Source: a virus (Duplodnaviria > Caudoviricetes). Taken from it: a DNA stretch of 64,000 bases. The notes beneath the pieces are model-generated. The model did not search any database, was not told where the DNA came from, and saw nothing but the letters and a program-made list of their open reading frames with translations. The translations under genes were made by a program, and so were the position numbers. The DNA is taken from IMG/VR virus record IMGVR_UViG_3300035698_013504, positions 136,904 through 200,903 of that record, one strand, 5' to 3'. Shown here in pieces: positions 42,216 through 58,356 of this stretch. Numbering within the stretch: the first letter of the stretch is position 1; each line of letters opens with the position of its first letter.

Positions 42216-42240
42216 CGTCACCCTTTTCATTACAAGTTAG

Positions 42241-42427: not shown

Positions 42428-42568
42428 GGGGAGTTACTGGATCAGTGTCCGGACACAATTCGGTTTTGAGCCTACGTACGTGGGTGATGCCGTGGAATGC
42501 TTACGCTGTACAGAAGACACTGAGCTCAAAGCGATGCATTTCGGCCAGTCGATACGCTCTCCCCACCA
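42428..42568 (+). ncRNA. CCA-ended structured RNA with acceptor-like stem
   Basis: GGGGAG pairs with CTCCCC followed by A-CCA; nested stems ACTGG/CCAGT and CAGTGTC/GACACTG. Confidence 0.65.
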
Positions 42569-42587
42569 TTTTAGATAGGAGACCCAG

Positions 42588-42893: not shown

Positions 42894-42919
42894 CCACAGC
42901 CAGGCATAGGAGAAAGAAG

Positions 42920-43345
42920 ATGGGCTCTACACCAAGCAATAAAGACGGCGGATGTTCTCTCTTACATGACCTTTGGAGAAGGTCTGTAGGTATGGAACCC
43001 AGACCGTCTACGGTGTTGATGCCCGATCTTGCATCTCTGAGGCAGACCGAGTGGTCTGATACGTTCGAGCAGTACATGCGCAACAGACTCGTCTTCGGGG
43101 CCGTCAGGTACGGCCTGGTTGGCGACAAGGGCAAACCCCGGTACGACCGGATCAAGTCGATACGCCAGAGACTTGACGCGTACGAAGAAACGGGGAATGA
43201 TGAACATCTGGTAGACGTCGCGAATATGGCCCAGCTCGAGTTTATCGAGGGGATTCATCCCAACAAGCATTTCGCGTCTATCGATGACGGTGTTCACACA
43301 CCAGTTTGCTCAGGTACTCTTCAGGCACGGGTTACTTCCCTTTAG
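42920..43345 (+). CDS. Conserved phage protein, possible nucleotide pyrophosphohydrolase-like
   Basis: MRNRLVFGAVRYG...EHLVDVAN; the last codons overlap the 5' end of an RNA module. Confidence 0.6.
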   Translation: MGSTPSNKDGGCSLLHDLWRRSVGMEPRPSTVLMPDLASLRQTEWSDTFEQYMRNRLVFGAVRYGLVGDKGKPRYDRIKSIRQRLDAYEETGNDEHLVDVANMAQLEFIEGIHPNKHFASIDDGVHTPVCSGTLQARVTSL

Positions 43346-43438
43346 GAGGGCGAGGTCATGGGTTCGAATCCCATTACCCGACTAATACTCGGGTATAGCT
43401 CAGAGGCAGAGCGCGCTTGTAAACCTGTACCGCTTTTT
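43319..43438 (+). ncRNA. YrlA-like RNA with circularly permuted tRNA domain (module copy 3)
   Basis: GGGCG/CGCTT anticodon stem, AGGTC variable loop, T arm ATGGG-TTCGAAT-CCCAT, perfect 7-bp acceptor TACCCGA/TCGGGTA closed by a loop, D arm GCTC...GAGC. Confidence 0.88.
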
Positions 43439-43480
43439 GGTGCCGAGCATTTTCTTTTGAAGCGGCGGCGGACGTCAGTC

Positions 43481-43579
43481 CAGCGTATGGTGTAACGGTT
43501 AACATTCTGTCGAAACAGTTACTCTCTGACGAGATTGGCTAAAGTAGGCGGGCTACGGGTTCGAATCCCGTTGCGTAGC
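43481..43579 (+). ncRNA. tRNA-like RNA lacking a canonical anticodon arm
   Basis: Acceptor CAGCGTA/TGCGTAG, D arm GTGT-AACGGTTA-ACAT, T arm ACGGG-TTCGAAT-CCCGT; 49 nt with short hairpins between D and T arms. Confidence 0.7.
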
Positions 43580-43609
43580 TGCTTCACATTTGATGGGACG
43601 ATGGTATAC

Positions 43610-43652
43610 CTTCAGCGGTGGGTTACTTCAATTGCTGAAAAAACCCCACTGC
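43610..43652 (+). ncRNA. CUUCAG-N8-UACUUC stem module, copy 4 (short)
   Basis: cttcag cggtgggt tacttc aattgctg aaaaaa ccccactgc. Confidence 0.6.
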
Positions 43653-43710
43653 ATCTATTGGACCTAGTCCCTCCTTATTGTTCTGCCCTGGAGGTTATAC
43701 CACCTCCCTC

Positions 43711-44052
43711 TGTCCTTTAGCGGGGATGGACGTCTAACGTCGCTGGCCAAGCGGCTGTAGACGCTAATCAAATAGGTCTCGCCACCCGGGCGAGTAGGGA
43801 TGTAGCTACCGAAAGCGCGCACCTTGATCTTTGGATATAGGGTGCAATCGATTAGTAGGTGTACGCCATCTTTCTATCATAGGTTCTTAACATGCTGCGG
43901 TACCACAGCTATGCCTGGATCACCGGTACGGACTTCGGTCCGGGGCAGTTCATCTTATTACGTTTGCCGCTGGGGTTCCCTCGTTAAAGTGGCCCGCTGC
44001 GGCGCCGCCCCCTCGGCGCCGTTTCGAAGGGCCTCAGCGGCTCTACAGGACA
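43711..44052 (+). ncRNA. Unknown ~340-nt multidomain structured RNA
   Basis: Closing stem TGTCCTTTAG/CTACAGGACA; nested GATGG/CCATC, CTAATC/GATTAG, CGTCTA/TAGACG, GCACCTT/AGGGTGC, CGGAC-TTCG-GTCCG, CCGCTGGGG/CCTCAGCGG. Confidence 0.65.
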
Positions 44053-44073
44053 TGAATGATGAGGTGTACTAGA

Positions 44074-44125
44074 CTTCAGGTAGGGGCTACTTCTATCCTA
44101 CAAGAAAAATACCCCAACTGACTTT
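44074..44125 (+). ncRNA. CUUCAG-N8-UACUUC stem module, copy 5, in the TROVE leader
   Basis: cttcag gtaggggc tacttc ...aaaaat accccaactg acttttg; ends ~75 nt before the TROVE start. Confidence 0.6.
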
Positions 44126-44195
44126 TGTCAGTCACCTCTCCCATTGTTGGCAGCCCTCTACGGAGCTGCTCTTGAAAGAACAGGGGGAACACACG

Positions 44196-46022
44196 ATGGC
44201 ACGATCGTTCCGCCGTATCTTGCGCGACGGCGCGCGAAAGAACGCGTTACCTTCCAACCGCCCCGATGCCACGGTTAACCGAGCTGGCGGCGTCTCCTTC
44301 GAGATCGCCGACCCGGCTACCAAGCTCATCACCATGACTGGTGGGGCGTTCTTTGGTGAGCCGAGGTTCTATTCAGGTTCCGACTGTGTACCCGTCCGGT
44401 CGTTCGGCGGGGCGTTCGCACCCTTGCAGGCACGTCTGGAGATCGCCAGGGACAAGTCTGTATCGTTCGCACGCTGCGAGGAGCTCGATGACACGGCACA
44501 GGAGATCATCGCAACGATCTTGGCTGTGCTCGATGGCGACACCCCAGAAGATGCGTTGGTTATCGCGGCGTGGCTGCGTAACGACGCAAACATCAGGCTC
44601 ACCCCCCAGGTGATCCTCACGCTTGCCGCCAATCACGAGAATGGCAAACCCTTCGTGCGCAAGTATGCGCCGAAGATCATGCTACGTCCGGATGAGGCGA
44701 AGACGAACCTCCTGTTGCACCGGTTCTTCTTTGGCTCGCGTAACCTGCCGAATAGCCTCAACAAAGCCATCGGTGACGGAGTCGCTCGCTTTGGCGAGTG
44801 GGGACTCATCAAGTATGATACGCCCTCCTTCCCCCGCTGGAAGGATGTGCTTCGTTGGATCAAGCGCCGCAACGGGTGGCCCCTCTCAAGAGGGCTGGCC
44901 CGCTACTTCACCCATGGTGAGGTGGATCGTGACGCTACTCCGATCGCCTATGCTCGCAGCCTCTTGGCTCAGAAGACTACCTTCGACACCGAGACTCGCG
45001 AGTTGATCACGGCCAGCCGTGCGACCTGGGAAGTCGTGATGTCTCAGTTCGGCCCACAGGACAAGACACGGGCCTGGGAGTACCTGGTTTTCGAGAACCT
45101 GTTGGGCTATATGGCCACGATGCGCAACCTGCGTAACATGGCTCAGGCCAACGTCAGCTCCCTGTGCGTCGACGCCGTTTGCAGAAAGCTTGTCAACCCC
45201 GAGGAAGTGGCAACAAGTAGGCAACTGCCTTATCGCTTCCTTGCCGCAAACAATGCCCTCTGGGGTAGCCCCGATCGGTTTGGTGGCAACAGCCGCGATA
45301 ACCGCATGGTGTCCCAGTGGCGCGTTAACCCGGTTGTTGGCGGGGGAGGCCTCTCCGGCTTCCGCGGGCTGAGTAAGTTCACAGATGCTCTCGATGAAGC
45401 CGCGGACATGTCCGTGAAGAACGTGCCTGTGTTGCCGGGCCAGACGGCCGTCCTTGTGGACGAGTCCAGCTCTATGCGTCAGCCGATCTCGGAGAAGTCG
45501 CAGATGCTAGTCTGTGACGCGTCGAATATGCTGGCGGGTATTATCGGGCGTGTCTCGGCCGATACGATCCTGTTGCCGTTCGGTGGTACCGTCGAGCATG
45601 TCCCCTGTCGTCATAGGGATACGGTGATCAGCATCGCAGAGAGGTGCGCGGCGGCCAATGTCGGCCACTCGACGAATACGTACCTCGGTATCCAGTACCT
45701 GATCGACAACGACATCGCGCCCGACCGGATTGTCATTCTGTCGGATGCACAAGCGTGGAACAGCTACAGCCGATCGTCGGGCTCGTTGCCTGACACGGTA
45801 CAGCAATACCGCCGCGGTTCGGCGATTGCAAAGGACACATGGATTCACAGTGTTCACGTCAACGGTTACGGCGACGACCCTATCCCCCCCGGTCCCCGTG
45901 TTAACCTCGTTTCTGGGTGGACGGACAAGATCGTGGACTCCATGCTTCACTGCGAAGGTGGCGTTGAGGGAGAAGAAGCGCTGGCGACCATCGACTACAT
46001 CAGAGCCAGGTGGTGTAATTAG
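44196..46022 (+). CDS. Ro60/TROVE-domain RNA-binding protein with vWA domain
   Basis: NRAGGVSF, FFGEPRFY, RNDANIRLTP, KYD, TWE, YMATMRNLRNM, LPYRF, vWA VDESSSM and LSDAQ. Confidence 0.92.
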   Translation: MARSFRRILRDGARKNALPSNRPDATVNRAGGVSFEIADPATKLITMTGGAFFGEPRFYSGSDCVPVRSFGGAFAPLQARLEIARDKSVSFARCEELDDTAQEIIATILAVLDGDTPEDALVIAAWLRNDANIRLTPQVILTLAANHENGKPFVRKYAPKIMLRPDEAKTNLLLHRFFFGSRNLPNSLNKAIGDGVARFGEWGLIKYDTPSFPRWKDVLRWIKRRNGWPLSRGLARYFTHGEVDRDATPIAYARSLLAQKTTFDTETRELITASRATWEVVMSQFGPQDKTRAWEYLVFENLLGYMATMRNLRNMAQANVSSLCVDAVCRKLVNPEEVATSRQLPYRFLAANNALWGSPDRFGGNSRDNRMVSQWRVNPVVGGGGLSGFRGLSKFTDALDEAADMSVKNVPVLPGQTAVLVDESSSMRQPISEKSQMLVCDASNMLAGIIGRVSADTILLPFGGTVEHVPCRHRDTVISIAERCAAANVGHSTNTYLGIQYLIDNDIAPDRIVILSDAQAWNSYSRSSGSLPDTVQQYRRGSAIAKDTWIHSVHVNGYGDDPIPPGPRVNLVSGWTDKIVDSMLHCEGGVEGEEALATIDYIRARWCN

Positions 46023-46052
46023 ATGTAGCACCACCACAAACAAATACGCAAG

Positions 46053-46089
46053 GAGCTGGTCACACGTTGTGACCAGCTCTTGTTCTTTA
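46053..46089 (+). terminator. Intrinsic terminator after TROVE
   Basis: 12-bp GAGCTGGTCACA/TGTGACCAGCTC stem followed by TTGTTCTTT. Confidence 0.8.
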
Positions 46090-46110
46090 GTCTCGCCTCA
46101 GGAGGGTACG

Positions 46111-47025
46111 ATGACCATCGTGACTCATGGTGGTACGGCCCACGCCGATGAGGTCATGTCGATTGCGCTGCTCGTATTGCGTGATGAGCATGTCCGCGCG
46201 GCGTACCGAAGACAGGCCCTCGATATCAAACGTGTCGCAAACTTCATGGATGACACGATTGCCCCGGGCGACTGGGTGTTGGATGTCGGGCTGATACATG
46301 ATCCCGAACGTTTGCGATTTGACCATCACCAGCAAAGGCCGCCCGTTGATAGCACGTTCAGTTTGCTCGCTAAGCATTTCGGGCTACATGAGACGCTGTC
46401 AACATGCACCTCGTGGTACAACCAGATCGTGTGCGTAGACGTACACGGCCCTATAAAGTACATGGAGAGCCTTGGGTTCTCAGACCCTACGATGGATACA
46501 TTCACCAGTGTGTTCAGCACCAGCATCCTTCAATGGTTTGTCACTCAGTTTGAGCGCCTGCCCATTGTTGGTATTGACTTGGCCGTACCTTGGCTAACCG
46601 AGCGTATCTCTGAGGCCCAGTCGATACGACTACGAGTTGATGAGCTGCTGGACACGGCGTCGGTATTTGGTAACGTAGTTGTCTTCCCGGATGCCGCGAC
46701 ACCTTTCGGCACAGGTTTGGCTATTCGCGAGCTTGTCTCGAGAAGTGATGTCTTTCTTGACATCGCCGTATCTATTCTCCCTGACAGTCGTGACAAAGGC
46801 ATGTGGTCGCTTATGCGGCTAGACGACGACGCAAGGGTAGACATGTTACGCATCGAAGAATTACCCTTTGTGGAGTTCGTACACGCCAACGGCTTTCTTG
46901 CCAAGGTGCGGTGCTCACTTCCTGAGGCTATTCAGCTTGCACAACAAACCATAAGGGAGGACGATGAGGATGTCTGGGAACGAAAGCACGACCGATGGCT
47001 TCAAGGAAAGCCTGGAAGATCTTAA
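46111..47025 (+). CDS. MYG1-family (UPF0160) nuclease/hydrolase
   Basis: VTHGGTAHADE, VLDVG...DP...FDHHQ, FVHANGF. Confidence 0.8.
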   Translation: MTIVTHGGTAHADEVMSIALLVLRDEHVRAAYRRQALDIKRVANFMDDTIAPGDWVLDVGLIHDPERLRFDHHQQRPPVDSTFSLLAKHFGLHETLSTCTSWYNQIVCVDVHGPIKYMESLGFSDPTMDTFTSVFSTSILQWFVTQFERLPIVGIDLAVPWLTERISEAQSIRLRVDELLDTASVFGNVVVFPDAATPFGTGLAIRELVSRSDVFLDIAVSILPDSRDKGMWSLMRLDDDARVDMLRIEELPFVEFVHANGFLAKVRCSLPEAIQLAQQTIREDDEDVWERKHDRWLQGKPGRS

Positions 47026-47413
47026 CGCCCACGTGGTGGATCTCGACGAACAGCTGCGTGCGGCCGAGAGTAAGGTGAGTAGCCTAGAGCACGAGTTGGC
47101 GGATACGAAGTTGGCCCACATCGCCGCGGCCGACAAGGCGACGGCGCTTGAGGTCATAATCGTCATGAAGAACGAGCAGCTTGAAAGGGACCACGAACGT
47201 CTCTGCGGGCTCATCGCATGGCTTGGCTATTATCACGCCAAGCTCAAAGGCCTCCAGTCGGCGCTGAGTGCTGTTACCGTCTTGTCATGCGATATCGACA
47301 TGAACTTCGAGGACTTCCGTAAGAAGCCCCCGATGGTAGGAACGCCCATCGCACTGTCTGATCAGACGGAACGCATTTCGGGTACGGCTGCTGAAGCGGA
47401 ACCGGTAAGGTGA
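46970..47413 (+). CDS. Coiled-coil hypothetical protein
   Basis: Heptad-rich ORF. Confidence 0.6.
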   Translation: MSGNESTTDGFKESLEDLNAHVVDLDEQLRAAESKVSSLEHELADTKLAHIAAADKATALEVIIVMKNEQLERDHERLCGLIAWLGYYHAKLKGLQSALSAVTVLSCDIDMNFEDFRKKPPMVGTPIALSDQTERISGTAAEAEPVR

Positions 47414-47823
47414 GTACCCAACGCCCCTGCACTATGTGTGCGCGCTGCTGCGGTGCTTCGCCTTGCTACATACCCGCGAGGTACGAGCAGTTCCTGCGCC
47501 ACACTTGTTGTGATATAGGCGTGCGCTTCTCGCGCAAGTGGGAGCTTTGTGTCACTAATTGGCCTATTGAAAGCCTGGCGGTGTCTGACCCGAATCGGGC
47601 GCCTCCGACAGACACGGCCCTACGAAGTTTCACGTACCGCCCGCGCGTAAGACGTGGCCGGTGTGCCTTCCTAACCGACGCCAATGAGTGTCGGTTTTTC
47701 TACCATCTTGAGGGACCCAAGAAGGGAGAACCTCGAGACCTCACGCTTGCCCGGCGCTTGATAAACGCCGAGAAGGGCTGCATGTTTAGGCCTCCGGTTG
47801 TTCGTCGTCACACGCGCAACTAA
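47410..47823 (+). CDS. YkgJ-like Cys-cluster protein
   Basis: CTMCARCC...CAFL...C. Confidence 0.6.
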   Translation: MSTQRPCTMCARCCGASPCYIPARYEQFLRHTCCDIGVRFSRKWELCVTNWPIESLAVSDPNRAPPTDTALRSFTYRPRVRRGRCAFLTDANECRFFYHLEGPKKGEPRDLTLARRLINAEKGCMFRPPVVRRHTRN

Positions 47824-47835
47824 GGATAGGAGAGC

Positions 47836-48360
47836 GTGAACGACCACTACATGGTCAAATGGGAAGGTGAAGGAGGGGATACGCACTACGGAACGGTTGA
47901 CGCATATAGTGAAGATGCGCAAGAGTTACGAGAGCGTAAGGTCCTTCTTATCGACGACGCGGTCTTGCATCTGCAGTACGAGGTGCCCGAGGCTAGCGTC
48001 ACAGACATTCCGTTTTCGTGGTCACAGCCCGACGAGTATACTTCATATGTCACCTCCGCGTTTAACGCAGCGGTAGCACGTGCAGCATCGTTGGGTAAAG
48101 GACTGAAACCGGGTAAGCTACTCCGCACACAAGTGGGGGACGGCTATGCTTGGTACATTGTTACGAAGGTAACACGAACGCAGGCAAACATCGAATGGCG
48201 AGGATTCTGCCCAGATCATTGGTATGATCAGGTCCTCGGGGCTGGCGGGTCTTTTGATAGAAGTATTATCGCTAGGCTTGTACAGCAACGTGAGTACGTA
48301 TATAAACATCAACCCCAAACCGAAGCATTTGCCACAAAGGAACAACAAGATGAAGGTTAA
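47836..48360 (+). CDS. Hypothetical protein upstream of Ubl
   Basis: RBS AGGAG; stop overlaps the Ubl start. Confidence 0.7.
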   Translation: MNDHYMVKWEGEGGDTHYGTVDAYSEDAQELRERKVLLIDDAVLHLQYEVPEASVTDIPFSWSQPDEYTSYVTSAFNAAVARAASLGKGLKPGKLLRTQVGDGYAWYIVTKVTRTQANIEWRGFCPDHWYDQVLGAGGSFDRSIIARLVQQREYVYKHQPQTEAFATKEQQDEG

Positions 48361-48637
48361 GATCTTCCCCCTCGCCGCTACGCCCCTGGAAGTTGAGCTC
48401 CCCGACACCATCGAGAACATCTCGGTAAAGCACATCTTCAGCCAGACCGGCACCGGCCGCGTCTTCAACGAGGACGATAACACCATCATGGGCGTTATCC
48501 AGGCTCGCCACGGTTCCTTCGAGAACTACGGCTCCGTTCACGTGAACGGCAACGTCGCCACCCTCGCCACGTCCCTCCGCAACGGCGACAACATCATGAT
48601 CGTCCCGCGCGTCCAGGGCGGCCGTCTGGTCGGCTAA
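48350..48637 (+). CDS. Ubiquitin-like (ThiS/MoaD beta-grasp) protein, 95 aa, GG followed by RLVG
   Basis: MKVKIFP...VHVNG...SLRNGDNIMIVPRVQGG-RLVG; RBS AAGG; strongly biased codon usage. Confidence 0.85.
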   Translation: MKVKIFPLAATPLEVELPDTIENISVKHIFSQTGTGRVFNEDDNTIMGVIQARHGSFENYGSVHVNGNVATLATSLRNGDNIMIVPRVQGGRLVG

Positions 48638-48667
48638 GGCGGCAGTCAATCCGGCAGTTAGACGATG

Positions 48668-48718
48668 GACCGTCACCCACCCACCGCTGCACGAGTGGGT
48701 GGCGGTCTTCGTTGGTTC
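48668..48718 (+). terminator. Attenuating hairpin between Ubl and E2
   Basis: 13-bp GACCGTCACCCAC/GTGGGTGGCGGTC stem followed by TTCGTTGGTT. Confidence 0.6.
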
Positions 48719-48733
48719 GTAATGGAGATTCTC

Positions 48734-50518
48734 ATGGAAGTAAGGTTAGAAGCTAGCGGACTCGCTATGTCCCCGGAATCACTTACCCAGCCGCTCTCCT
48801 TTCTATCGCACCAGGTAGGTAAGCCGGTGCGAGTCGTCGATTGGAATGACAGCATCATCAACGCGGACCTGGTAGACCGAAGTGAGCTTCTGGTCTGCTT
48901 CGTGCCGCCAGAGCGCAGTCGCCAGATGCGCGACCACCTCTACTACGGCACCACAGGTCACCGCGCGCTGGAACCAGCGACCTCATCGCGTCGGTCCGAT
49001 CGGATACGAACCAGCAGCACGTTCTGTAACGCGCTGCTATTGGATACCGGTCAGGTCGTCGAGCAAACGATGTTGTCCGACGTTGTTCAATGCGCGATCC
49101 CGGTCCTGGCCGACTTCTTCGACCACGAGGTCCAAACCGCGCAGACCCCCGAGTTTCTCAGGTCAATTACCCGGGGCATACAGCGATTCTTCCAGACCAA
49201 CACCAGAGACGAGCAGGTCATTTTGGCGCAGGCGCAGGAGAAGTACGAGAACCTGCGTGCCGAGATGTATGAAACAAACCGGACGATCATCCGGGCACGC
49301 GCGATTGTCAACTCGATGCAATTCAGTGAGGAAAGTCTGGTTGACGGCAGGTCGCGTATTGCGGCCAACAGGCTGGCCTCGTTGGTTGACACTGGTGTGT
49401 ACAAACGCATCAGGATCACCGAAGATAACGTCGAAGCCGAGACCGGCCATATCGATATCCTCTGGCAGAACTACGCCATTCCGATGGGCACGTACAAAGT
49501 GTACATCAGTTTGTCTACCGGCCGTCTCACCGTCAGAGCGGTTACGTTGTCGCATAACTCGCCTAACGGGTATACCCATCCGCACCTTAGTAGCGGAGAT
49601 GTCTGTTGGGGTAATCTCAGCGTTGAGGCGAGTAGGGCTCAGACTCGTGGTAACTGGGGTGATGCTTTGATGTATGCCCACGCACTTCTCCAGTCTTACT
49701 ACCCGGACAACCCGTATATCGTCATCGGTCGTTTCAGCTCAGCCGAGGGGGTTCTCCCCAGCGAATTGATGCACGGCCCCGGCGACGAGGATCGGTGCGA
49801 AGGGTGCGATGATCGTAACTCGCCCTACTGTATCTTCAGCTGTGACCACAACGAGGACGGTGAAAGGTTCACGAGTGATGACTGCTGCGATTACGGCAAC
49901 ATCACGTGCTACACGACGTGTGACCACAACGCTGACCACTGCTGCATATCGCCGTGCGACAACTGCGACTACAGCAGCCCGACCGTAGCCGACTGCATGC
50001 GTTGTCAGAATAACCCGCATTTCATGCACAACAACCCGTGTAGGGCCTGTACCGAAGAGTACGTAGACGCCTGCCGCGCCTGCGAGTTCCAATCCCGGGT
50101 CGACGAAGCCGTTAGACGCGGTGTCGAAGACGCCAGACCAACAGAGGAACGTCCAGATGATCCGACAGATTCCGACGGGCCCAGTGACTCCGGCGACTCC
50201 GGCGAAGAAGCTGACCCCGCCAGTGACACCGGCGTCGAAAGCGAAGGAGCCGGAGGAGGAGGAGGACCTGTCCCAAATCGAGGGAACAGTGATCCGGTCC
50301 CTGTCTCAGCCGAAGCCTCCAACGATTCAGACGTCGGCGAAGCAGTCCGCAACCCCGGTGACGAAGCCAGACCCAGTCGTCGTCGGCAAGGTAGTGACGC
50401 CGCCAGCATCAGCGCAGACGTCAACACCGGCAACTCTACCGAAACCGTTTACACCGGCAGCCCCAGCAGCGTCGGCTACCCCAGCGACAGCCCCGTCGGG
50501 AGCGAAGTCGACCGTTAA
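48734..50518 (+). CDS. Prokaryotic E2-like (UBC-fold) protein with coiled coil and Cys-rich region
   Basis: YTHPHLSSGDVCWGN (HP...G.xC; Cys codon 49604-49606); ATG 48734 behind GGAG; about 20-Cys region downstream. Confidence 0.75.
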   Translation: MEVRLEASGLAMSPESLTQPLSFLSHQVGKPVRVVDWNDSIINADLVDRSELLVCFVPPERSRQMRDHLYYGTTGHRALEPATSSRRSDRIRTSSTFCNALLLDTGQVVEQTMLSDVVQCAIPVLADFFDHEVQTAQTPEFLRSITRGIQRFFQTNTRDEQVILAQAQEKYENLRAEMYETNRTIIRARAIVNSMQFSEESLVDGRSRIAANRLASLVDTGVYKRIRITEDNVEAETGHIDILWQNYAIPMGTYKVYISLSTGRLTVRAVTLSHNSPNGYTHPHLSSGDVCWGNLSVEASRAQTRGNWGDALMYAHALLQSYYPDNPYIVIGRFSSAEGVLPSELMHGPGDEDRCEGCDDRNSPYCIFSCDHNEDGERFTSDDCCDYGNITCYTTCDHNADHCCISPCDNCDYSSPTVADCMRCQNNPHFMHNNPCRACTEEYVDACRACEFQSRVDEAVRRGVEDARPTEERPDDPTDSDGPSDSGDSGEEADPASDTGVESEGAGGGGGPVPNRGNSDPVPVSAEASNDSDVGEAVRNPGDEARPSRRRQGSDAASISADVNTGNSTETVYTGSPSSVGYPSDSPVGSEVDR

Positions 50519-52241
50519 GCCCGTAGGGACAACGGTCGTGAAGACCGTCGCCGTGCCGAAGCAGCCACGTAACGCTTTCGGCGCCTACGACAGCACTGTC
50601 TATGACGTTGACGACAAGGTTGATCCCCCTGTCAACATCACCATCACTCAAACCGCGTACCAGAAGATCCGGGCATTCACCAATGCCGGGAACAGCCTCG
50701 AGATCAGTACCTTAGGTCTCGTCGATGTGATAACCCACGGACAGACCGAGCCCACCGAGTTACAGGTGAGCGACGTGTTCTTGGTTGAACAAAAGGGTAG
50801 TATGGGTGACACCACGATGGATTCGGAGGCTATCGCCAAGCTCATGATGGAGCTTATTGAAGAAGGCGTTGACACCTCCCGTATCCGCTGTTGGCACCAC
50901 ACCCATGGTACCGGCGGTGTTTTCTGGTCTGGAACAGACCACGACACTGCTTCGCGTATCTGCGCCGAGTGGGTCATCTGCCTGGTCACAAACGTGGCCG
51001 GTGACATGATTGCCCGTCTCGATCTCAATACACCCTTCCCCCTAACGGTCGATGAAGTCCCAGTCCGAGTGATATTGGACGGCGAGGACGACGTATGGGC
51101 CATTTGTAAGGAGGAAGTCGCAAAGAAGGTCACGAGTAGTTTCAGCGGAGTTGTCCGAGGTAACAATAAGTGGAACGGCAACTACGGTAACAGCTACGGA
51201 GGTAGATACGGAGCAGCAGGCGGCGACGACGACGACTTTTCAGGCTGGGGAATGTGTGGTCACCGATCAATCGGTGCGACCGGCAATTCCGCAGCAGGAC
51301 AGGACGCGTCGGGAGACCACGTTTACGCCGATCGCTTTGGCGATCCGGATGCGAAGTATGACGAGGTGGTCCACGAGTTAGGGGTCAAACCTGCGGATCA
51401 GGTTAGTACCCTACCTACGGGCATCGAAATCTACTGTCCGGCCTGTTCGGAGCTGCACAGAGTCATTGACGTGTGCCGAGAGGGCGTTGGAGGCGCCACT
51501 ATCTCCAGCGTCTTCGAAGCCATGGCAAAGCTCATGGCGGAGAAAACGTACATCTGGTGCCCCAACTGTAGGGGTACTGGCGGTATTGCCACCTCATGCG
51601 TTACCTGCATGGGTTACGGGTATCTCACGGAGCACGAGGTCGAAACTTTCCAGTTACTGCAAAGTGATAACCCCGAAGATCCCACTCCGATGGTCGTTGT
51701 TGAAGCTGACGACGATGACGATACGGCTAAGGCTCTTGCACTCTTTGATGCTCAAGCCGATATCGACGCGGAAGCGGAGATCGGCGAGCGTCTACGGATT
51801 ACCTCCGGCGAGTATGAAGAGATGGCCCTTCCGATGTGCCCGTTCGATCAGCTCCCGATGTTGCCGTACAGCCTACCCGTCTACTGTGCCCAATGTGATA
51901 ACACTCACACGGTTATGGACCCGTGCTTTGAGCCAACAGGGGTTAACGGTGACCGCGTAAGCAGTATCAAGAACACCATGGCTGCCCACATGTCGGTTCA
52001 CAAGTTCTTGTGGTGCCCCAGCTGTGTTGGTACCGGCGGAGATAACATGAGTTGCACTGACTGTCAGGGCCTCGGTTATCTCACGCATGAGAAGTACGCA
52101 GACGTCGAAGCTGACGCTGAAGGCCTGAAGGCTCTCCTCGCCACGCGACATGCCGCGGAGAACCCCAACGAAGAAACCAGTGTTCTGATTGTCAGTGTAT
52201 TGGAGGACGAGACCGATGGAACCAGCTGTACAAACACCTGA
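50157..52241 (+). CDS. JAB/MPN+ metallopeptidase with Pro-rich N-terminus and tandem Zn-finger repeats
   Basis: LEISTLG...WHHTHG...FWSGTD (E...HxH...SxxD); two CxxC...CxxCxGxG...CxxCxGxG repeats; ATG 50157 behind GAGGA. Confidence 0.85.
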   Translation: MIRQIPTGPVTPATPAKKLTPPVTPASKAKEPEEEEDLSQIEGTVIRSLSQPKPPTIQTSAKQSATPVTKPDPVVVGKVVTPPASAQTSTPATLPKPFTPAAPAASATPATAPSGAKSTVKPVGTTVVKTVAVPKQPRNAFGAYDSTVYDVDDKVDPPVNITITQTAYQKIRAFTNAGNSLEISTLGLVDVITHGQTEPTELQVSDVFLVEQKGSMGDTTMDSEAIAKLMMELIEEGVDTSRIRCWHHTHGTGGVFWSGTDHDTASRICAEWVICLVTNVAGDMIARLDLNTPFPLTVDEVPVRVILDGEDDVWAICKEEVAKKVTSSFSGVVRGNNKWNGNYGNSYGGRYGAAGGDDDDFSGWGMCGHRSIGATGNSAAGQDASGDHVYADRFGDPDAKYDEVVHELGVKPADQVSTLPTGIEIYCPACSELHRVIDVCREGVGGATISSVFEAMAKLMAEKTYIWCPNCRGTGGIATSCVTCMGYGYLTEHEVETFQLLQSDNPEDPTPMVVVEADDDDDTAKALALFDAQADIDAEAEIGERLRITSGEYEEMALPMCPFDQLPMLPYSLPVYCAQCDNTHTVMDPCFEPTGVNGDRVSSIKNTMAAHMSVHKFLWCPSCVGTGGDNMSCTDCQGLGYLTHEKYADVEADAEGLKALLATRHAAENPNEETSVLIVSVLEDETDGTSCTNT

Positions 52242-52962
52242 AGCCGTTGAAGAAGAAGTTGTCGAGACGGCGGAGGAAGAGGTTGTGGCTGATGACTTCG
52301 AGGCTCCCCCTTCGTACTTACGTCAGTTGGACATTTGCCCGCCCGATAAGCTTCAGTTCCCGATCACAGTGATCGGGGCTGGCGCCATCGGTTCTGCCGT
52401 CGTTCTCGCCATATCGAAGATGGGATGCCAAAACATCACCGTCTTCGACCATGACACTCTGGAGGCACACAACGTGCCCAACCAGATCTGTCTCTCGGCG
52501 GCAGTCGGAGAAGGTAAGGTCGAGGCCCTTGATGCCTTGATTAGGAATTTGTGCGGCTACGGACTCCAAGCCAAAAAGCCCTTCAAGTACACAGGGCAGA
52601 CGGTTGAGGGAGTACTCGTACTTGCCGTTGACGACATGGATACACGCATCAACATCTGGAAGTGGATCCAGGAGAATAGCCGTCGTCAGCCGGACCTCAT
52701 CATCGATGCTCGTATGGGCGCCGAGGTGGGTCGCATTCACTCAGCCTACATGAACGATACGTTGGGAGTCGAGGCATTTGATGCGAACCTTTACCCGAGC
52801 AGCGAAGCTCTTGAGCTTCCGTGTTCGGCACGTTCGATCATCTTCTGTCCGATCGTGTTGGGAGGCCTGGTCGCCGCGCTTATCAAAAAGCACGCGATGG
52901 ACCAGGACATTCCGCACAACCTGGCGCTCGACATGGAGAACCTGGGTATCGTGCGTTTCTAG
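52216..52962 (+). CDS. ThiF/E1-like adenylating enzyme
   Basis: IGAGAIGS, FDHDTLEAHNVPNQ, LAVDDM, IDARMG, candidate catalytic Cys in ELPCSAR (52822-52824). Confidence 0.92.
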   Translation: MEPAVQTPEAVEEEVVETAEEEVVADDFEAPPSYLRQLDICPPDKLQFPITVIGAGAIGSAVVLAISKMGCQNITVFDHDTLEAHNVPNQICLSAAVGEGKVEALDALIRNLCGYGLQAKKPFKYTGQTVEGVLVLAVDDMDTRINIWKWIQENSRRQPDLIIDARMGAEVGRIHSAYMNDTLGVEAFDANLYPSSEALELPCSARSIIFCPIVLGGLVAALIKKHAMDQDIPHNLALDMENLGIVRF

Positions 52963-53005
52963 CACGTTAACGCCGTTCAACATATAGACATACGCAAGTG
53001 TGTAT

Positions 53006-53080
53006 GGGGCATAGACGGGAGAGCGAGGCCCGGTAAGGGTCTTTCTCTTCCGTCTTGCCCCCTCTGTTCCCTTTACTTTA
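53006..53080 (+). terminator. Long hairpin ending the Ubl operon
   Basis: GGGGCATAGACGGGAGAG/CTCTTCCGTCTTGCCCC followed by a pyrimidine tract. Confidence 0.65.
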
Positions 53081-53100
53081 GTAGTGAGGAGCCTAATACT

Positions 53101-53676: not shown

Positions 53677-54426
53677 ATGCCTCTTAACAACGTTTCGAGC
53701 TTCTGCGCCAATCCCGAGAACTTTGCCAATATCCCCACAGCCCCGGCCCGTCAGCCGCATGACGGCCGCCTTATCGTTCATGTCGGGTTCCATTCGAGCG
53801 ACAAAGACTTCTTCTGTGCATCCTACTCCCCTGACACTGGTATCTTCACGTGTTGGGAGCAGTACGGCCGGGAGGGCCGAGAGCGTACTGTCGCGGCGGA
53901 CTACATCGCGCGTGACTCGGAAAACTACAAGTTGGACTTCACCGGCCCCACACCCATTCAGAAGTTGGCGTCGACCGCTATGAATGGCACTGACCTGCGC
54001 ATGGATATCACAGCAACGTGCCCGGGGTGTAGCGAGTCTGAAGGGCGGGTCCACCAGATCGGCTGCGAGATGGAGATTTGTCCCTTCTGTGGTGGCAAGC
54101 TCTTCGGCTGTGCCTGTCGATTCAGGCTCTTGAGCCTTGTCGACCCGAGTACGTACGACGCGACGACGGGGTTTCTGCCCCCTGAGGTCTTCGCGGACGG
54201 GCTTAACGACGAGATGCAGGCCCGCTGGAATCAGATACTCGCCGATAGAGGCCGATGCGTCTTTATCAAGTATCCGCCTCTCTGTTCGTACTGCGGCACA
54301 CCCAGGAACCTGATGTCCCCCCTTCCCGTAGAATGGGGTGCGTTCGTCGCACTGGATTATCAGGGTAAGCCTATGTGCCACCAGTGTTTCGCGCGTATCA
54401 AGCATCTCACACTTCGCGCCAGATAA
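53677..54426 (+). CDS. Cys-rich hypothetical protein, paralog 1
   Basis: CPGC...H..GC..E.CPFCGGKLFGC.C; paralog of the next gene. Confidence 0.75.
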   Translation: MPLNNVSSFCANPENFANIPTAPARQPHDGRLIVHVGFHSSDKDFFCASYSPDTGIFTCWEQYGREGRERTVAADYIARDSENYKLDFTGPTPIQKLASTAMNGTDLRMDITATCPGCSESEGRVHQIGCEMEICPFCGGKLFGCACRFRLLSLVDPSTYDATTGFLPPEVFADGLNDEMQARWNQILADRGRCVFIKYPPLCSYCGTPRNLMSPLPVEWGAFVALDYQGKPMCHQCFARIKHLTLRAR

Positions 54427-54450: not shown

Positions 54451-55221
54451 ATGCCTAGGCCCGACCTTTCCAACTTCTGTCTTGGGGCGCGCGATTTAGA
54501 TCGCATTCCGATCGTACCGATCATACAGTCGCATGACCCCCGCCCCATGGTCTATATCGGTTTCAACTACGAAGGCGTGGATTTCTTCTGCTTCTCTTAC
54601 AACCCCGAGACAGGAGTCTTCGAGTGTTACGTAGATAATGATAGCAGCGGGTGGTACAGCTCTGTCTCCGTCCACTACATATCGCGGGACCCCGATCACT
54701 ACGTGTTGGACATCATGACCCCCATAGGGCTTCAGAGGGTCGCCCACCACGCCATGACGCCTATGGACCTCCGTATGGACACTAAGGCCACATGTTTTGC
54801 CTGTGGGGCCATAGAGGGACAGCGGCACTCTGAGACCTGTATCTTGGAGCTATGCCCCCTCTGTGGTAAGACTCTCTCCGGTTGTTTCTGCAATTACGAG
54901 TTTCTTGGTCTTCTCAACCGGGATCTCTTCGACACGTCCACGAACTTCTTGCCACTAGAGATCTACCACAATGGGCTTAGCCAGTCTCAGGAGAGAGCGT
55001 GGTGCGATCATCTTGAGGACGTAGGGCGAATTCCCTTTATCAAGTATCCGTGCCTGTGTGGCTACTGTGGGACGCCACACAACCTCATTTACGACCACGA
55101 TGACTGGGAGGATGTCCTCCCGGACAGCAAACAGAACGAACCACTGTGTCGTATGTGCTTCGAACGTATCAAGCGCCTCATCAGAGGAGCCCCACCGCCG
55201 CACGCTACCCCTGCTAACTAA
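54451..55221 (+). CDS. Cys-rich hypothetical protein, paralog 2
   Basis: Collinear similarity with 53677-54426; RBS AGGAGG. Confidence 0.75.
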   Translation: MPRPDLSNFCLGARDLDRIPIVPIIQSHDPRPMVYIGFNYEGVDFFCFSYNPETGVFECYVDNDSSGWYSSVSVHYISRDPDHYVLDIMTPIGLQRVAHHAMTPMDLRMDTKATCFACGAIEGQRHSETCILELCPLCGKTLSGCFCNYEFLGLLNRDLFDTSTNFLPLEIYHNGLSQSQERAWCDHLEDVGRIPFIKYPCLCGYCGTPHNLIYDHDDWEDVLPDSKQNEPLCRMCFERIKRLIRGAPPPHATPAN

Positions 55222-56177: not shown

Positions 56178-57353
56178 GTGGCTGACATTATTAACGCATT
56201 CTTCGAAGTACTGTCCGGCTTCATGGTATTGCTACACTGTCGACGTGTATGGATCGACAAGGGCACCAAGGGTGTCAGCATACCCGCGACGTTCTTCTTT
56301 GCCCTATGGGGCTTCTGGAACCTGTACTACTACCCGTCACTCGGCCAGTGGTGGTCGTTGTGGGGTGGCGTTTCGATTGTGTCCGCCAACTGCCTGTGGA
56401 TCTACTTGATGATGAAGTACAGGTATCGCAGTAGGCCGGTGTCGTGTTCAACACCCACCGTCGACGACGTTAGCGATGTGTGTATAGACATCCCGGGTGC
56501 GCGAGCGATAGTCGAGCACTACGAAGAGACGCAGGACCAGCGAGCAGCCGAAGCGGTGAGCCTTGCGAATCAGAAGCGGGCGACGCCAGAAGGTCAGAAG
56601 TTCCCGGCCGGTAGTCGTGTAAGGATTGTGGACACGCTTCCCTCGCTCATGGACTACTACGACGGCGCCGGGTGTCTCGCTACGGTAAGGAGATCGGCTG
56701 CCCAGGCCTACAGTGGCGGCGACCCGACCGACTACGCCTTATACGTTGATGGTATAGGCGAGGTGCCTCAGTATTACCCCGAGTATGTACTGACTCTTAT
56801 TGAGGACGAGTCATCCAGCTTGGCAAACCAGCGGCGATCGACCCCAGAAGGGCAGAAGTTCCCCCGTGGTAGCCAAGTAAGGATTTCGGAAGACCCCGAA
56901 GAGCTTTTTGGCCGCCGTAGGTGTAAGGGGCTCTCGGCTACCGTGGTGCACTCGCATGCCCAGGCCTATAGCGGCACACAAGCGGGCTCTTATGCCCTTT
57001 ATATCGACGGCATAGGAGAAGTGAACTGGTATCCTGAGGGGATGTTGACCCTCGTCGGCGGGGAGGAACCCGCGCCAGTTAAGCCACTACGAGTTCAGAA
57101 GTTTCCGAAGGGTACGCGCGTAAGGATTGCGGATGCGCCCGCGGGATTGAATAAGTATCAGGCGAAACGCTACGTAGGAGCAGGATGTCTTGCCACCGTG
57201 CTGCATACCTACGCTCAACTCCATGGTGGCACGGAGGTAGGCTCGTACGTCTTGGACGTTGATGAGCTAGGGACCGTGTCCTGGATCCCTGAGAGTAGGT
57301 TAACGCGGTATCCATTAGGAGAGGATGAGAGGACCAAACATGAGTGCGAATAG
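56178..57353 (+). CDS. PQ-loop/SemiSWEET-like membrane domain fused to three tandem SH3-like repeats
   Basis: Three hydrophobic helices with KGTKGVS; three QKFPxG(S/T)xVRI...ATV...AQ.Y.G...Y.L.VDG.GEV.(W/Y).PE repeats. Confidence 0.65.
   Translation: MADIINAFFEVLSGFMVLLHCRRVWIDKGTKGVSIPATFFFALWGFWNLYYYPSLGQWWSLWGGVSIVSANCLWIYLMMKYRYRSRPVSCSTPTVDDVSDVCIDIPGARAIVEHYEETQDQRAAEAVSLANQKRATPEGQKFPAGSRVRIVDTLPSLMDYYDGAGCLATVRRSAAQAYSGGDPTDYALYVDGIGEVPQYYPEYVLTLIEDESSSLANQRRSTPEGQKFPRGSQVRISEDPEELFGRRRCKGLSATVVHSHAQAYSGTQAGSYALYIDGIGEVNWYPEGMLTLVGGEEPAPVKPLRVQKFPKGTRVRIADAPAGLNKYQAKRYVGAGCLATVLHTYAQLHGGTEVGSYVLDVDELGTVSWIPESRLTRYPLGEDERTKHECE
56595..57320 (+). repeat. Three diverged ~250-nt coding repeats
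   Basis: CAGAAGTT(C/T)CC...GTAAGGATT units start at about 56595, 56853 and 57096. Confidence 0.8.
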
Positions 57354-58356
57354 CAAGATCGAGTGGACGGACCACACGTTTAACCCTTGGTGGGGGTGTC
57401 ACAAGAAGCCCGGGCGGCCCGGGTGTGACCACTGCTATGCGGAGCCGTTCGCAAAGCGTGTTGGACATAAGGTGTGGGGGCCCGCCGCGCCGCGCAGGTT
57501 CTTTGGTGACAAGCACTGGGCTGAACCGCTGAAGTGGAACCGTAAGGCTGAGAAGGCAGGCAAACGGGCGCGGGTGTTCTCGGGGTCGATGTGTGACGTG
57601 TTCGAGGACCGCGACATCCTCATACCGTTCCGGTCGCGCCTGTTTGAGTTGGTTGAGGCCACGCCATTCCTTGATTGGATGTTGCTCACCAAACGCGCAG
57701 AGAACATGGCCCTAATGTCTCAGGTATTGTGGCGCGAGGGTTGGCCCGCTAACGCATGGGCGCTGTGTACTGTTGAGAATCAAGCTGCGGCTGACGAACA
57801 GATACCCCACCTCCTGCGAGTTCCTGCCCCTGTACGTCTCCTCTCCGTTGAGCCGATGCTTGGGCCGGTGGACATTTACGATGCGCTCAGCGGCTATCCA
57901 CAGTTGGTGTCACAGCGGCAATACGTGAGCGCGGACATGGCAACCGACGCTGGCGACCCATCCCTTGATGGCGCAAGGCTCTCTGATGAAGAGTGGGAGC
58001 AAACAAGCCCGGCCCTTGACGGCGTCATCTGCGGCGGCGAGAGCGGCCACGGCGCCCGCCCCATGCACCCTGACTGGCCCGGCGACCTCCGCGACCAGTG
58101 CGCCGCCGCCGGTGTACCGTTCTTCTTTCAGCGGTGGGGGGAATGGTGTCCCCGGTCTGATGGATATGCGCAGGATGAGAACAAGCCCATGGTTCGGCTT
58201 GAAATCGACGGATCTGACGGCCAGACGGTCGTCACCGATGTGCTAAAGTCTAACCAGGTGTGGATGGGCCGCGTTGGCAAGAAAGCCACCGGCCGCCTCC
58301 TCGACGGATGCGAACACAACGACCTGCCGGGTGCGGCCAGCAGAGGCCAGCAATGA
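57340..58356 (+). CDS. DUF5131 / phage Gp37-Gp68 family protein
   Basis: SKIEWTDHTFNPWWGC...GCDHCYAE, LLTKR, LSVEPMLG, ICGGESG...ARPMHP. Confidence 0.92.
   Translation: MSANSKIEWTDHTFNPWWGCHKKPGRPGCDHCYAEPFAKRVGHKVWGPAAPRRFFGDKHWAEPLKWNRKAEKAGKRARVFSGSMCDVFEDRDILIPFRSRLFELVEATPFLDWMLLTKRAENMALMSQVLWREGWPANAWALCTVENQAAADEQIPHLLRVPAPVRLLSVEPMLGPVDIYDALSGYPQLVSQRQYVSADMATDAGDPSLDGARLSDEEWEQTSPALDGVICGGESGHGARPMHPDWPGDLRDQCAAAGVPFFFQRWGEWCPRSDGYAQDENKPMVRLEIDGSDGQTVVTDVLKSNQVWMGRVGKKATGRLLDGCEHNDLPGAASRGQQ

Follow-up and report, generated by a model that had tools for sequence, protein, structure and literature searches.

The four-gene unit and its viral carrier

The carrier of the cassette is a jumbo phage with a 200.9-kb genome, represented by the complete IMG/VR record IMGVR_UViG_3300035698_013504, which has direct terminal repeats and encodes phiKZ-type RNA polymerase subunits. 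These features bear out the phage setting claimed in the original prediction, for which a chromosomal origin had been named as the alternative. The window (the whole stretch of DNA analyzed; 64,000 nt) corresponds to positions 136,904-200,903 of that record, and coordinates below are those of the window. Positions 48350-52962 hold four co-directional genes on the + strand in the order Ubl-E2-JAB-E1, as first read from the sequence, encoding a small ubiquitin-like protein (Ubl), an E2-like protein, a JAB protease and an E1. The features of the unit were as follows.

48350..48637, +: Ubl gene; 95 aa, ThiS/MoaD/SAMP-type beta-grasp, ending VQGG-RLVG
48617-48622, +: conserved Gly-Gly of the Ubl, followed by the four-residue cap RLVG (48623-48634)
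48734..50518, +: E2-like gene; 594 aa (ORF 48665-50518; upstream ATG at 48665 possible)
48734-49390, +: N-terminal alpha/beta domain and long coiled coil of the E2-like protein
about 49328-49753, +: UBC core of the E2-like protein
49577..49606, +: predicted active-site motif HPHLSSGDVC (HPH-x6-Cys), candidate catalytic Cys at 49604-49606
49796..50083, +: Cys-rich appendage of the E2-like protein; 18 Cys in about four CxxC...CxxxC/CxxC units
50538..52241, +: JAB/MPN+ (JAMM) metalloprotease gene; 567 aa from GTG 50538 (ORF 50121-52241)
about 50630-51170, +: MPN domain of the JAB protein
50898-50939, +: JAMM motif HxHx7Sx2D, HTHGTGGVFWSGTD, with its upstream Glu at 50700-50702
51405..52097, +: two tandem Zn-finger modules at the JAB C-terminus (51405-51647 and 51855-52097)
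52216..52962, +: minimal E1 gene; 248 aa from ATG 52216 (TTG 52189 possible), a single ThiF-type adenylation domain
52375-52395, +: E1 GxGxxG
52447-52485, +: E1 DxD...NVPNQ
52627-52647, +: E1 Mg-Asp region
52822-52824, +: E1 candidate catalytic Cys (PCSAR)
53006..53061, +: long GC-rich hairpin 44 nt past the E1 stop, then a U-containing stretch

The unit sits inside a co-directional phage operon. The preceding gene (47836-48360) overlaps the Ubl start at 48350, and an AAGGAA site precedes the Ubl ATG. Because a scan of the window found no promoter-like site belonging to the unit and the upstream gene abuts it, the four genes may form the last part of a longer operon. The E2 start at 48734 agrees with the N-termini of homologues and with a GGAG site. 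The JAB start is ambiguous by sequence: starting at ATG 50157 (AGAGGA site) the gene would overlap the E2 tail by 362 nt, and starting at GTG 50538 (AGGGA site) it would begin 19 nt past the E2 stop. Two frames are open at once over 50121-50518, with the coding signal moving from one to the other, as might happen if the genes were real and the system had decayed or lost activity in this phage, for instance through a frameshift at the E2/JAB junction. We give almost no weight to such decay, since the catalytic motifs are all intact, GTG 50538 offers a clean, non-overlapping JAB start, and a related phage contig (L001) has the same two-frame overlap, in which the E2 tail is acidic and the JAB leader rich in Pro and Thr.

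The large hairpin said to close the unit was recovered at 53006-53061. The surrounding 141-nt stretch (52960-53100) folds at -59.2 kcal/mol (z -5.69), and 0/200 shuffles folded as well. A simple terminator scan left the hairpin unlisted because its stem and loop exceed the limits of the scan and it has no clean T run. It is likely a transcription stop or a 3' stabilizer of the unit.

Families, folds and conserved residues

The identities originally proposed for the four proteins are supported by profiles, folds and conserved motifs. The Ubl matched ThiS at E 2e-4 (22.2 bits, cut-off 22.5) and the MoaD model TIGR01687 at E 1.4e-4. Its family profile matched SAMP2 (5lda_B; E 1.4e-4), the best solved relative, and also PF1061 and MoaD, with alignments that reach the last residue of these proteins. 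The terminal Gly was invariant in 9 Ubl homologues, which carry 0-4 residues beyond it. By sequence and by the predicted E1:Ubl complex the Ubl is assigned to the ThiS/MoaD/SAMP beta-grasp type, with its C-terminal Gly predicted to lie in the E1 active site. Judged from its sequence, the RLVG cap must be removed before the Ubl is activated.

The E1 matched Pfam ThiF (E 1.4e-12, 47.8 bits, cut-off 28.1), the PADLOC E1-E2 model (1.2e-12) and, below that model's own cut-off, NCBIfam 6A-MBL cap2_3 (2e-14); its family profile matched UBA5, ThiF and PaaA at about 1e-13. The GxGxxG, DxD, Lys, Mg-Asp and Arg residues were invariant in 11 homologues, consistent with a ThiF/MoeB-type adenylating enzyme. 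An invariant Asn (EAHNVPNQ) occupies the place of the Arg in the MoeB NLxRQ motif, which leaves room for different ATP chemistry. The PCSAR Cys was present in 10/11 E1 homologues and missing at the aligned position in one; its loop lies next to the tail of the docked Ubl. No rhodanese domain was found in the E1.

Structure prediction of the E1:Ubl pair, one of the checks proposed at the outset, favored docking, with an ipSAE of 0.75 against 0.00 for the best of 3 controls, a score that may come from resemblance to solved complexes (MoeB-MoaD and ThiF-ThiS) and not from specific binding. The ipSAE mark used in this test was reached by 51/78 solved complexes and by 2/108 mismatched pairs. Runs shared at least 78% of contacts, with a partner pLDDT of at least 63. 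In the predicted complex, Ubl residues 85-91 touch E1 residues 54-59, 137-141 and 165-173, and the Ubl tail lies in the E1 ATP site (P-loop/Asp pocket).

The E2-like protein gave no match to Pfam UQ_con or Prok-E2 at E<=1, no model for it was found in Pfam, NCBIfam or PADLOC, and UQ_con was matched by 1/64 of its relatives (1.9e-4). The AF2 model had a pLDDT of 82 (core >90). UBC E2s headed both the Foldseek and the VIA lists, with Z 8.1-6.6 and alignments over about 120 of some 150 residues, and among the 50 VIA-align matches listed nearly all were UBC E2s. Foldseek probabilities reached 0.98 with weak E-values against the PDB (0.02-0.5), and the AFDB cluster 'UBC core domain-containing protein' was matched at E 6e-8. 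The core could be aligned with UbcH7 and Ubc13, HPN...Cys included, and the family profile placed the motif on the HPN...Cys active site of UbcH7 (E 0.007). The family numbers 276 representative homologues at E<=1e-3. The UBC E2 fold, whose absence would have counted against the original prediction, is thus present in the modeled core, which runs from alpha1 through a four-stranded sheet and the active-site loop to alpha2/alpha3. The H, P, C and G of the motif were invariant across 64 sequences, and HPH-x6/7-C recurred in 148/150 E2 representatives; the invariant His-Pro and Cys argue for catalysis.

Beyond its core the E2-like protein carries the Cys-rich appendage and ends in an acidic low-complexity tail. 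The appendage probably binds metal, and its Cys columns are kept across the 47 homologues that have such a tail. About 40% of E2 representatives have the Cys-rich tail, and it is therefore optional in the family. AF2 gave it no confident fold (pLDDT 36-60), and the ESM Atlas returned no named match. Its four Cys4 knuckle-like repeats do not have RING C3HC4-type spacing, the E2-like protein matched no RING model in Pfam, and no RING gene, RING-spaced motif or other E3 was found at the locus. The earlier suggestion that the Cys-rich and Zn-finger appendages act as built-in E3s thus found no support, given the lack of RING spacing and of a confident fold and the optional tail; it is kept as a lead because a few E2 relatives are automatically named RING-type.

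The JAB protein carries an exact E...HxHx7Sx2D motif, the E, H, H, S and D of which were invariant in 12 homologues. Its family profile matched Rpn11/PSMD14 (3e-11), the Caldiarchaeum Rpn11-like protein (8e-10) and CSN5 (1e-7), and the single sequence matched 6fjv (E 0.008); Pfam Prok-JAB scored 15.9 bits, under its cut-off of 25. On this sequence evidence we place it in the JAB/MPN+ (JAMM) metalloprotease family, nearest Rpn11/CSN5. Each of the two Zn-finger copies (44% identity, E 8e-24) combines a CxxC...H...C knuckle with a DnaJ-type CxxCxGxG pair, and the region matched DnaJ_CXXCXGXG at E 3.7e-4 (below cut-off) and DnaJ_bact TIGR02349 at E 6e-5.

Distribution and relation to known systems

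The cassette is a conserved module: the same gene set was found in 25 other loci, far beyond chance. Among loci seeded with the E1 (homologues of 199-250 aa), both an E2-like gene and a small gene for a Gly-ended protein were present in 10/10 viral and 13/13 bacterial MAG loci; the JAB gene was present in 10/10 and 8/13, respectively, with no detectable JAB in the other five MAG loci. The flanks differ from locus to locus, and across 13 loci compared no fifth gene or other conserved neighbor was found.

This distribution bears on whether the cassette is instead a defense or exclusion module riding on the phage, which would tag structural proteins of rival phages or serve bacterial carriers rather than help this phage take over its host. 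Characterized Bil operons are anti-phage and tag a tail protein. The original framing of the cascade as lying on the phage side holds in that the cassette is in a complete phage, and needs qualifying in that the same cassette occurs in bacterial MAG contigs, at least one of which has it among housekeeping genes. One relative (L002) adjoins ApeA-HEPN, SLFN/AlbA and PIN genes and resembles a defense island, and variable flanks are like those of mobile accessory modules. Against these points, all 10 E1-seeded IMG/VR matches came from viral contigs (25-207 kb), the E2 clusters in the ESM Atlas were 53-73% viral, and the unit is embedded in the phage operon. PADLOC models did not match the Ubl or the E2 and gave only a weak, unrelated match to the JAB (PDC-M01B, E 0.022); on the E1 only generic Cap2-type 'E1-E2' models matched, over the Rossmann region. 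We regard the defense or exclusion module as unlikely.

Bil operons share with the phage cassette the gene order Ubl-E2-JAB-E1, a Ubl with a conserved C-terminal Gly and sometimes a few-residue cap taken off by the JAB, and an E2 that carries a catalytic Cys, without a gene of its own for an E3. BilD, however, is a multidomain E1 with inactive and active adenylation domains and a CYS domain, whereas the phage E1 is one 248-aa adenylation domain. The phage Ubl is a single ThiS/MoaD/SAMP-like domain and not ISG15-like, its E2 keeps a canonical HPx...Cys and ranks with eukaryotic UBC structures, and the carrier element is a phage. Thus the gene order and capped Ubl of Bil are present, whereas the multidomain E1 and recognition by defense profiles are absent.

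The archaeal SAMP/UbaA/HvJAMM1 and Thermus TtuB/TtuC systems resemble the cassette in their small MoaD-like Gly-Gly Ubl, MoeB-size E1 and JAMM protease. They lack an E2, whereas the loci of the cassette all include a conserved Cys-bearing UBC-fold protein. Archaeal sampylation works without an E2, and the SAMP/UbaA and TtuB/TtuC systems double as sulfur carriers. The E1 and Ubl might accordingly be an E2-independent pair or a sulfur carrier, with the E2-like protein a non-catalytic scaffold or adaptor, as the SAMP2 likeness of the Ubl and the minimal MoeB/ThiF size of the E1 would allow. This is very unlikely, given the invariant His-Pro and Cys of the E2 and a Ubl made with a cap that the co-encoded JAB would remove. 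Sulfur-transfer genes had been noted as absent nearby, and their absence extends to the whole 200.9-kb genome: rhodanese, MoaE and ThiG gave no match, and controls found them in 11-14/14 reference genomes. The phage differs in this from the ThiS-ThiF and MoaD-MoeB sulfur-carrier pathways, and the lack of a rhodanese domain in its E1 points the same way.

With canonical eukaryotic and archaeal UBC systems, such as the Caldiarchaeum Ub-E1-E2-RING-Rpn11 operon, the cassette shares an E2 core close to UbcH7/Ubc13 and a JAB profile close to Rpn11. It departs from them in that its Ubl is not ubiquitin-like by sequence, its E1 is minimal, without a UFD or Cys domain, the cassette has no RING, and Pfam UQ_con misses its E2.

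E1, E2 and JAB domains in one conflict-type operon are also a feature of CBASS Cap2/Cap3 and of classes 6a-6e (Iyer 2006), and Cap2-type models give the Rossmann region of the E1 its best scores. Cap2, however, is an E2 fused to an E1 and tags a CD-NTase, not a Ubl, whereas the phage E2 and E1 are separate genes with a dedicated Ubl; no CD-NTase was found among the neighbor genes scanned. Operons of class 6d (Iyer 2006) encode an E2 missing the upstream His, along with a JAB-N domain and a fifth, alpha-helical protein; Bub (class 6e) has Ser/Tyr oxyesters, a Cys-less E1 and E2, and a DUF6527 protease. The cassette shows none of these traits. The upstream His-Pro of the cassette E2 is invariant, and conserved Cys are found in both its E2 (invariant) and its E1 (10/11). 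Membership of Bil, CBASS Cap2/Cap3, Bub and Iyer class 6d was rejected because defining features of each are lacking. The prokaryotic 'tri-ligase' Ubl systems (Burroughs et al. 2011, cited through another paper) may be related, which we keep only as a lead.

Proposed pathway and significance

The cassette is probably a functional, self-contained Ubl protein-conjugation cascade carried by the jumbo phage. We infer the following steps. The JAB would trim RLVG off the Ubl precursor after Gly91, exposing the Gly-Gly. The ThiF-type E1, probably a homodimer, would take the Ubl tail into its ATP site, adenylate the terminal Gly and then probably form a Ubl thioester on the near-invariant Cys of the PCSAR loop. 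The Ubl would be handed to the HPH...C Cys of the UBC-fold E2, presumably as a second thioester, and joined by the E2 to a target amine. The likeliest target-selecting parts are the N-terminal domain, coiled coil and Cys-rich tail of the E2, and the JAB may also be able to reverse the mark. As to its role, our best guess is that it modifies host or phage proteins in the course of infection, which could serve host takeover, counter-defense or exclusion.

To our knowledge, Ubl conjugation in bacteria has so far been characterized only as host defense (CBASS Cap2/Cap3, Bil and Bub). A complete, conserved cascade found most often in phage genomes reverses that defense-only picture. A tentative extension, which we consider possible, is that a eukaryote-like Ubl pathway of their own operates in jumbo phages and in many further uncultured phages, modifying host or viral proteins during infection; if true, prokaryotic viruses would thereby have their first virus-owned protein-conjugation cascade. 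As a compact four-protein system the cassette is testable, and identifying its target could reveal a new form of phage control over host or rival proteins. Its unusual parts are an E2 nearer to canonical UBC proteins than known bacterial E2s, an Rpn11-like protease and a 220-250-aa E1 with the invariant EAHNVPNQ motif. The family may lie near the base of the canonical E2/Rpn11 lineage and would be useful for studies of eukaryotic ubiquitin origin and for minimal protein-ligation tools. The cassette may also be co-transcribed with the upstream Ro60 and MYG1 genes, a possible pointer to RNA-protein quality control.

Genome context and operon layout

The virus record is a single contig of 200,903 bp with a CheckV completeness of 100% and direct terminal repeats (IMG/VR). 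An exact terminal repeat of 127 bp was found in the genome sequence, and two large ORFs matched PHROG families of the phiKZ-type multisubunit RNA polymerase (RNAP) beta subunit with E-values down to 1e-73; judged by these matches, the virus is a jumbo phage that encodes an RNAP of its own. The Pfam models Terminase_6N, Terminase_6C and Phage_sheath_1 had no match anywhere in the genome, which argues for a divergent jumbo phage, and its identity as a phage was therefore based on the record in IMG/VR and CheckV together with the 127-bp repeat and the RNAP families. On these grounds the contig was assigned to a phage rather than a chromosome, as originally predicted. Genes in the window, which is the final 64 kb of the record, lie almost all on the + strand. 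The cassette had no match by blastn among GenBank phages. Four consecutive + strand ORFs were found as first described, and the features used below were as follows.

Genome (C1) 40128-44507 and 47270-49120 (7129-11505 and 14271-16118 of L016, a stretch of the same genome): phiKZ-type RNAP beta-subunit ORFs, by PHROG matches
44172-46022, + strand: Ro60/TROVE plus vWA gene, 2.3 kb upstream of the cassette
46117-47025, + strand: MYG1-family gene, upstream of the cassette
48350-48637, + strand: ubiquitin-like protein (Ubl)
48734-50518, + strand: E2-like protein
50538-52241, + strand: JAB peptidase
52216 (or TTG 52189)-52962, + strand: E1 ORF
53006-53061: hairpin

The E2-like gene most likely starts at ATG 48734, which has an upstream GGAG site and agrees with the N-termini of homologs, and stops at 50518. 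The JAB ORF is open from 50121 and has two credible starts, ATG 50157, which gives a 362-nt overlap with the E2 tail, and GTG 50538, 19 nt past the E2 stop. Codon-usage and GC3 profiles alternated between both frames over 50100-50520 and favored neither start; JAB was annotated from 50538 and 50157 was flagged as the alternative. Across this junction (50121-50518) two frames are open together for ~400 nt; in one, the E2 tail is acidic and rich in Ser, Asp and Gly, and in the other, the JAB leader is rich in Pro, Thr and Ala. The same double-open arrangement is present at 3038-3219 of L001, a related 4.3-kb phage contig whose E2 is the nearest relative of this one (34% identical in the alignment; gene order MYG1, 174-aa homolog, Ubl, E2, JAB). 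Fusion of E2 to JAB by frameshift was set aside because the two are separate proteins in homologs. The hairpin predicted to close the operon is long, and the 141-nt stretch that holds it folded at -59.2 kcal/mol (z -5.7).

No sigma-70-like promoter was found within the cassette unit, and a gene for a 174-aa protein immediately upstream overlaps the start of the Ubl gene. On this evidence the four genes may form the downstream end of a longer operon, with its start near the Ro60/TROVE and MYG1 genes. Genes for a 149-aa coiled coil, a 137-aa CxxCxxCC protein and the 174-aa protein lie between MYG1 and Ubl (up to 48360), and those from Ro60/TROVE through the 174-aa gene (44172-48360) are on the same strand as the cassette with tiny or negative gaps. 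When the flanks of 15 related loci (L001-L015) were searched for Ro60, MYG1 and other flanking genes, MYG1 and the 174-aa gene were conserved in L001 only and Ro60 adjoined the cassette in none. A general Ro60-Ubl linkage for this cassette family was not supported, since only this close relative shares the flanks. Downstream of the cassette are adjacent paralogs at 53677-54426 (249 aa) and 54451-55221 (256 aa) with common Cys-rich motifs and no Pfam match, and a DUF5131 (phage Gp37Gp68-type) protein with a strong match at 57325-58356 (E 4.7e-74).

Folds and active sites of the four proteins

The E2-like protein was the questionable member of the set, because it was not recognized by Pfam, NCBIfam, PHROG, PADLOC or a single-sequence PDB search; a word-based search for homologs, run from the E2 alignment, yielded one protein. 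When 1.84 billion representatives were searched exhaustively with HMMER, 276 relatives were recovered at E≤1e-3. The motif YxHPH[VI]xxxGxxC[WL]GN has invariant His, Pro, Cys and Gly in 64 aligned E2 sequences and was present in 148 of 150 representatives among the matches listed. An AlphaFold2 model built from the homolog alignment had a mean pLDDT of 82, with values >90 across residues 199-340. Besides the UBC core it shows an alpha/beta domain at the N-terminus and a coiled coil roughly 100 residues long. Foldseek against the PDB ranked the canonical UBC E2s UbcH7, UbcH5, Ube2K and Ubc13 at the top (probabilities up to 0.96-0.98, with weak E-values of 0.02-0.5), and VIA-align gave Z-scores of 8.1-6.6 over ~120 aligned residues, with Z of at least 5 in 109 chains. 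The family profile matched UbcH7 (E 0.007) and Ubc13 (E 0.022), and HPH...C fell exactly on HPN...Cys. Matching AlphaFold DB clusters (E 6e-8 to 1e-4) included one titled "UBC core domain-containing protein", and the ESM Atlas returned unnamed, mostly viral clusters first, followed by Prok-E2_D and E2-CBASS clusters; its E2 clusters were 53-73% viral. The structural, profile and cluster matches to UBC proteins therefore speak against a protein lacking the UBC fold, and the E2-like assignment was upheld.

The predicted JAB/MPN+ peptidase matches the JAMM signature exactly (Glu, HxH, x7, S, xx, D), with no variation among 12 homologs, and its family profile matched Rpn11/PSMD14 (3e-11), a Caldiarchaeum Rpn11-like protein (8e-10) and CSN5 (1e-7). 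E1 scored above the Pfam ThiF cut-off and has no rhodanese domain. GxGxxGS, DxD, Lys, the Mg-Asp and Arg are invariant across 11 E1 homologs, as is the block EAHNVPNQ (52447-52485), where Asn takes the place of the Arg found in NLxRQ, the ATP-binding motif of MoeB/ThiF. The candidate catalytic Cys proposed for E1 is that of PCSAR, which was kept in 10 of the 11. The E1 profile was about equally near UBA5, ThiF, PaaA, TcdA, MccB and the Uba1 active domain, and by its sequence the protein belongs with generic minimal E1s and not with the multidomain enzymes of Bil.

The Ubl is, as originally reported, a 95-aa protein ending VQGG followed by RLVG, and its scores against the ThiS and MoaD models were borderline. 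Its family profile matched SAMP2, PF1061 and MoaD, aligned through the C-terminal residue. The terminal Gly is invariant in nine homologs and is followed by 0-4 residues, the pattern expected if JAB trims a precursor. In the predicted E1:Ubl complex, residues 85-91 of the Ubl contact three segments of E1, namely 54-59 (P-loop), 137-141 (Mg-Asp) and 165-173, with an ipSAE of 0.75 compared to 0.00 for the best control, contacts agreeing by at least 78% between runs and partner pLDDT of at least 63. Of 78 solved complexes, 51 attained an ipSAE of 0.75, as did 2 of 108 mismatched pairs; here the score would indicate likeness rather than prove binding, because MoeB-MoaD-like complexes have already been solved.

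The Cys-rich and Zn-finger appendages had been proposed as built-in E3 or substrate adaptors. The 18 Cys of the E2 tail (49796-50083) fall into roughly four CxxC...CxxxC/CxxC units. Their spacing differs from that of a RING, and this E2 had no match to any RING model. In a second model of the UBC core plus tail, the tail (pLDDT 36-60) had no confident fold, and a named-cluster ESM Atlas search with it found nothing. Such a tail is present in ~40% of E2 representatives, in at least two sequence styles, and absent from the rest; one relative matched zf-RING_4 and two AFDB clusters were auto-named RING-type. The E3 proposal was therefore not supported for this protein and would be a lead for some of its relatives. 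At its C-terminus JAB carries a module of roughly 78 aa twice in tandem (copies 44% identical, E 8e-24), each copy consisting of a CxxC...H...C knuckle and a DnaJ-type CxxCxGxG pair; model scores fell short of the threshold.

Distribution of the cassette

An E1-seeded search of IMG/VR recovered 10 loci, whose contigs measure 25-207 kb. E2-like and JAMM genes stand beside E1 in all 10, and in eight of them a small neighboring ORF has Gly as its last residue or followed by just 1-2 more. A first scan of genome contigs with a two-sequence E1 alignment returned no locus; a later scan with a broader alignment returned 13, all in MAGs (NC10/Methylomirabilota, Melainabacteria, Patescibacteria/CPR, Thermoanaerobaculia and one gammaproteobacterium). 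These were the only loci with the exact motif E[AE]HNVPNQ in 185,579 species genomes, and all were cassette E1s. E2-like, E1 and Ubl matches were present in 13/13 and JAB in 8/13; no JAB was detected in the fetched stretches of L020-L023 and L030 (NC10/Methylomirabilota and one gammaproteobacterial), which retain E2, E1 and Ubl. On L002, a metagenome contig, Ubl-E2-JAB-E1 adjoins PIN, ApeA-HEPN and SLFN/AlbA genes. One further relative is surrounded by genes for RuvX, YceG, Obg and photolyase, indicating a chromosomal setting. The phage context first described is thus not exclusive, as the bacterial MAGs and this chromosomal setting showed.

Gene orders were Ubl-E2-JAB-E1, E2-E1-JAB, E2-JAB-E1-Ubl and Ubl-JAB-E1-E2-E2, and no fifth gene was conserved across the loci compared. 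The varied order, the lack of a fifth gene and the occurrence in viral and bacterial loci argue that the cassette is an autonomous mobile module, commonest in phages but also present outside them. Tandem E2-like gene pairs were observed in L012 (3152-6121) and in L026, L027, L029 and L031 (about 5750-7870), and the order Ubl-JAB-E1-E2-E2 was common to the four Melainabacteria/Cyanobacteria-related MAG loci.

Proposed relay and relation to known systems

The cassette probably encodes a functional Ubl conjugation cascade, because the parts are present, the catalytic residues intact and the linkage strict. JAB would mature the Ubl, and could also remove it; E1 would adenylate the Ubl; and E2 would carry it on Cys before ligating it to a target. 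Use of the Ubl as a sulfur carrier was weighed against this. The original prediction had noted no sulfur-transfer genes nearby, and rhodanese, MoaE and ThiG were absent from the whole phage genome, although controls found them in 11-14 of 14 reference genomes. Together with the rhodanese-free E1 and the constant presence of an E2 whose active site is invariant, this makes a sulfur-carrier role unlikely. If the cassette does conjugate, its purpose may be a pro-phage role or Bil-like exclusion of competitors.

Bil resembles the phage cassette in gene order and in its capped, Gly-ended Ubl, but BilD is a multidomain IAD-AAD-CYS enzyme whereas the phage E1 is minimal. PADLOC had no match for the phage Ubl or E2 and just one weak, unrelated match for JAB. 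In CBASS, Cap2 has E2 fused to E1 and the CD-NTase is tagged; Bub/6e, unlike the phage cassette, features oxyesters and a DUF6527 protease. The E2 of Iyer class 6d, accompanied by a JAB-N domain and an additional helical protein, lacks the upstream His that is invariant in the phage-cassette family. SAMP and TtuB systems lack the E2 found here. In sequence and structure ranking, the phage E2 and JAB were nearest to canonical UBC and Rpn11/CSN5 proteins. They recall the Ub systems of eukaryote-like type that a later paper cites from Burroughs et al. (2011) for prokaryotes, compared with which the phage Ubl and E1 are of a simpler MoaD/MoeB grade. No description of phage-encoded Ubl-E2-JAB-E1 cassettes was found in full-text literature outside subscription papers; the nearest report was of ThiF-like genes in Asgard archaeal viruses.
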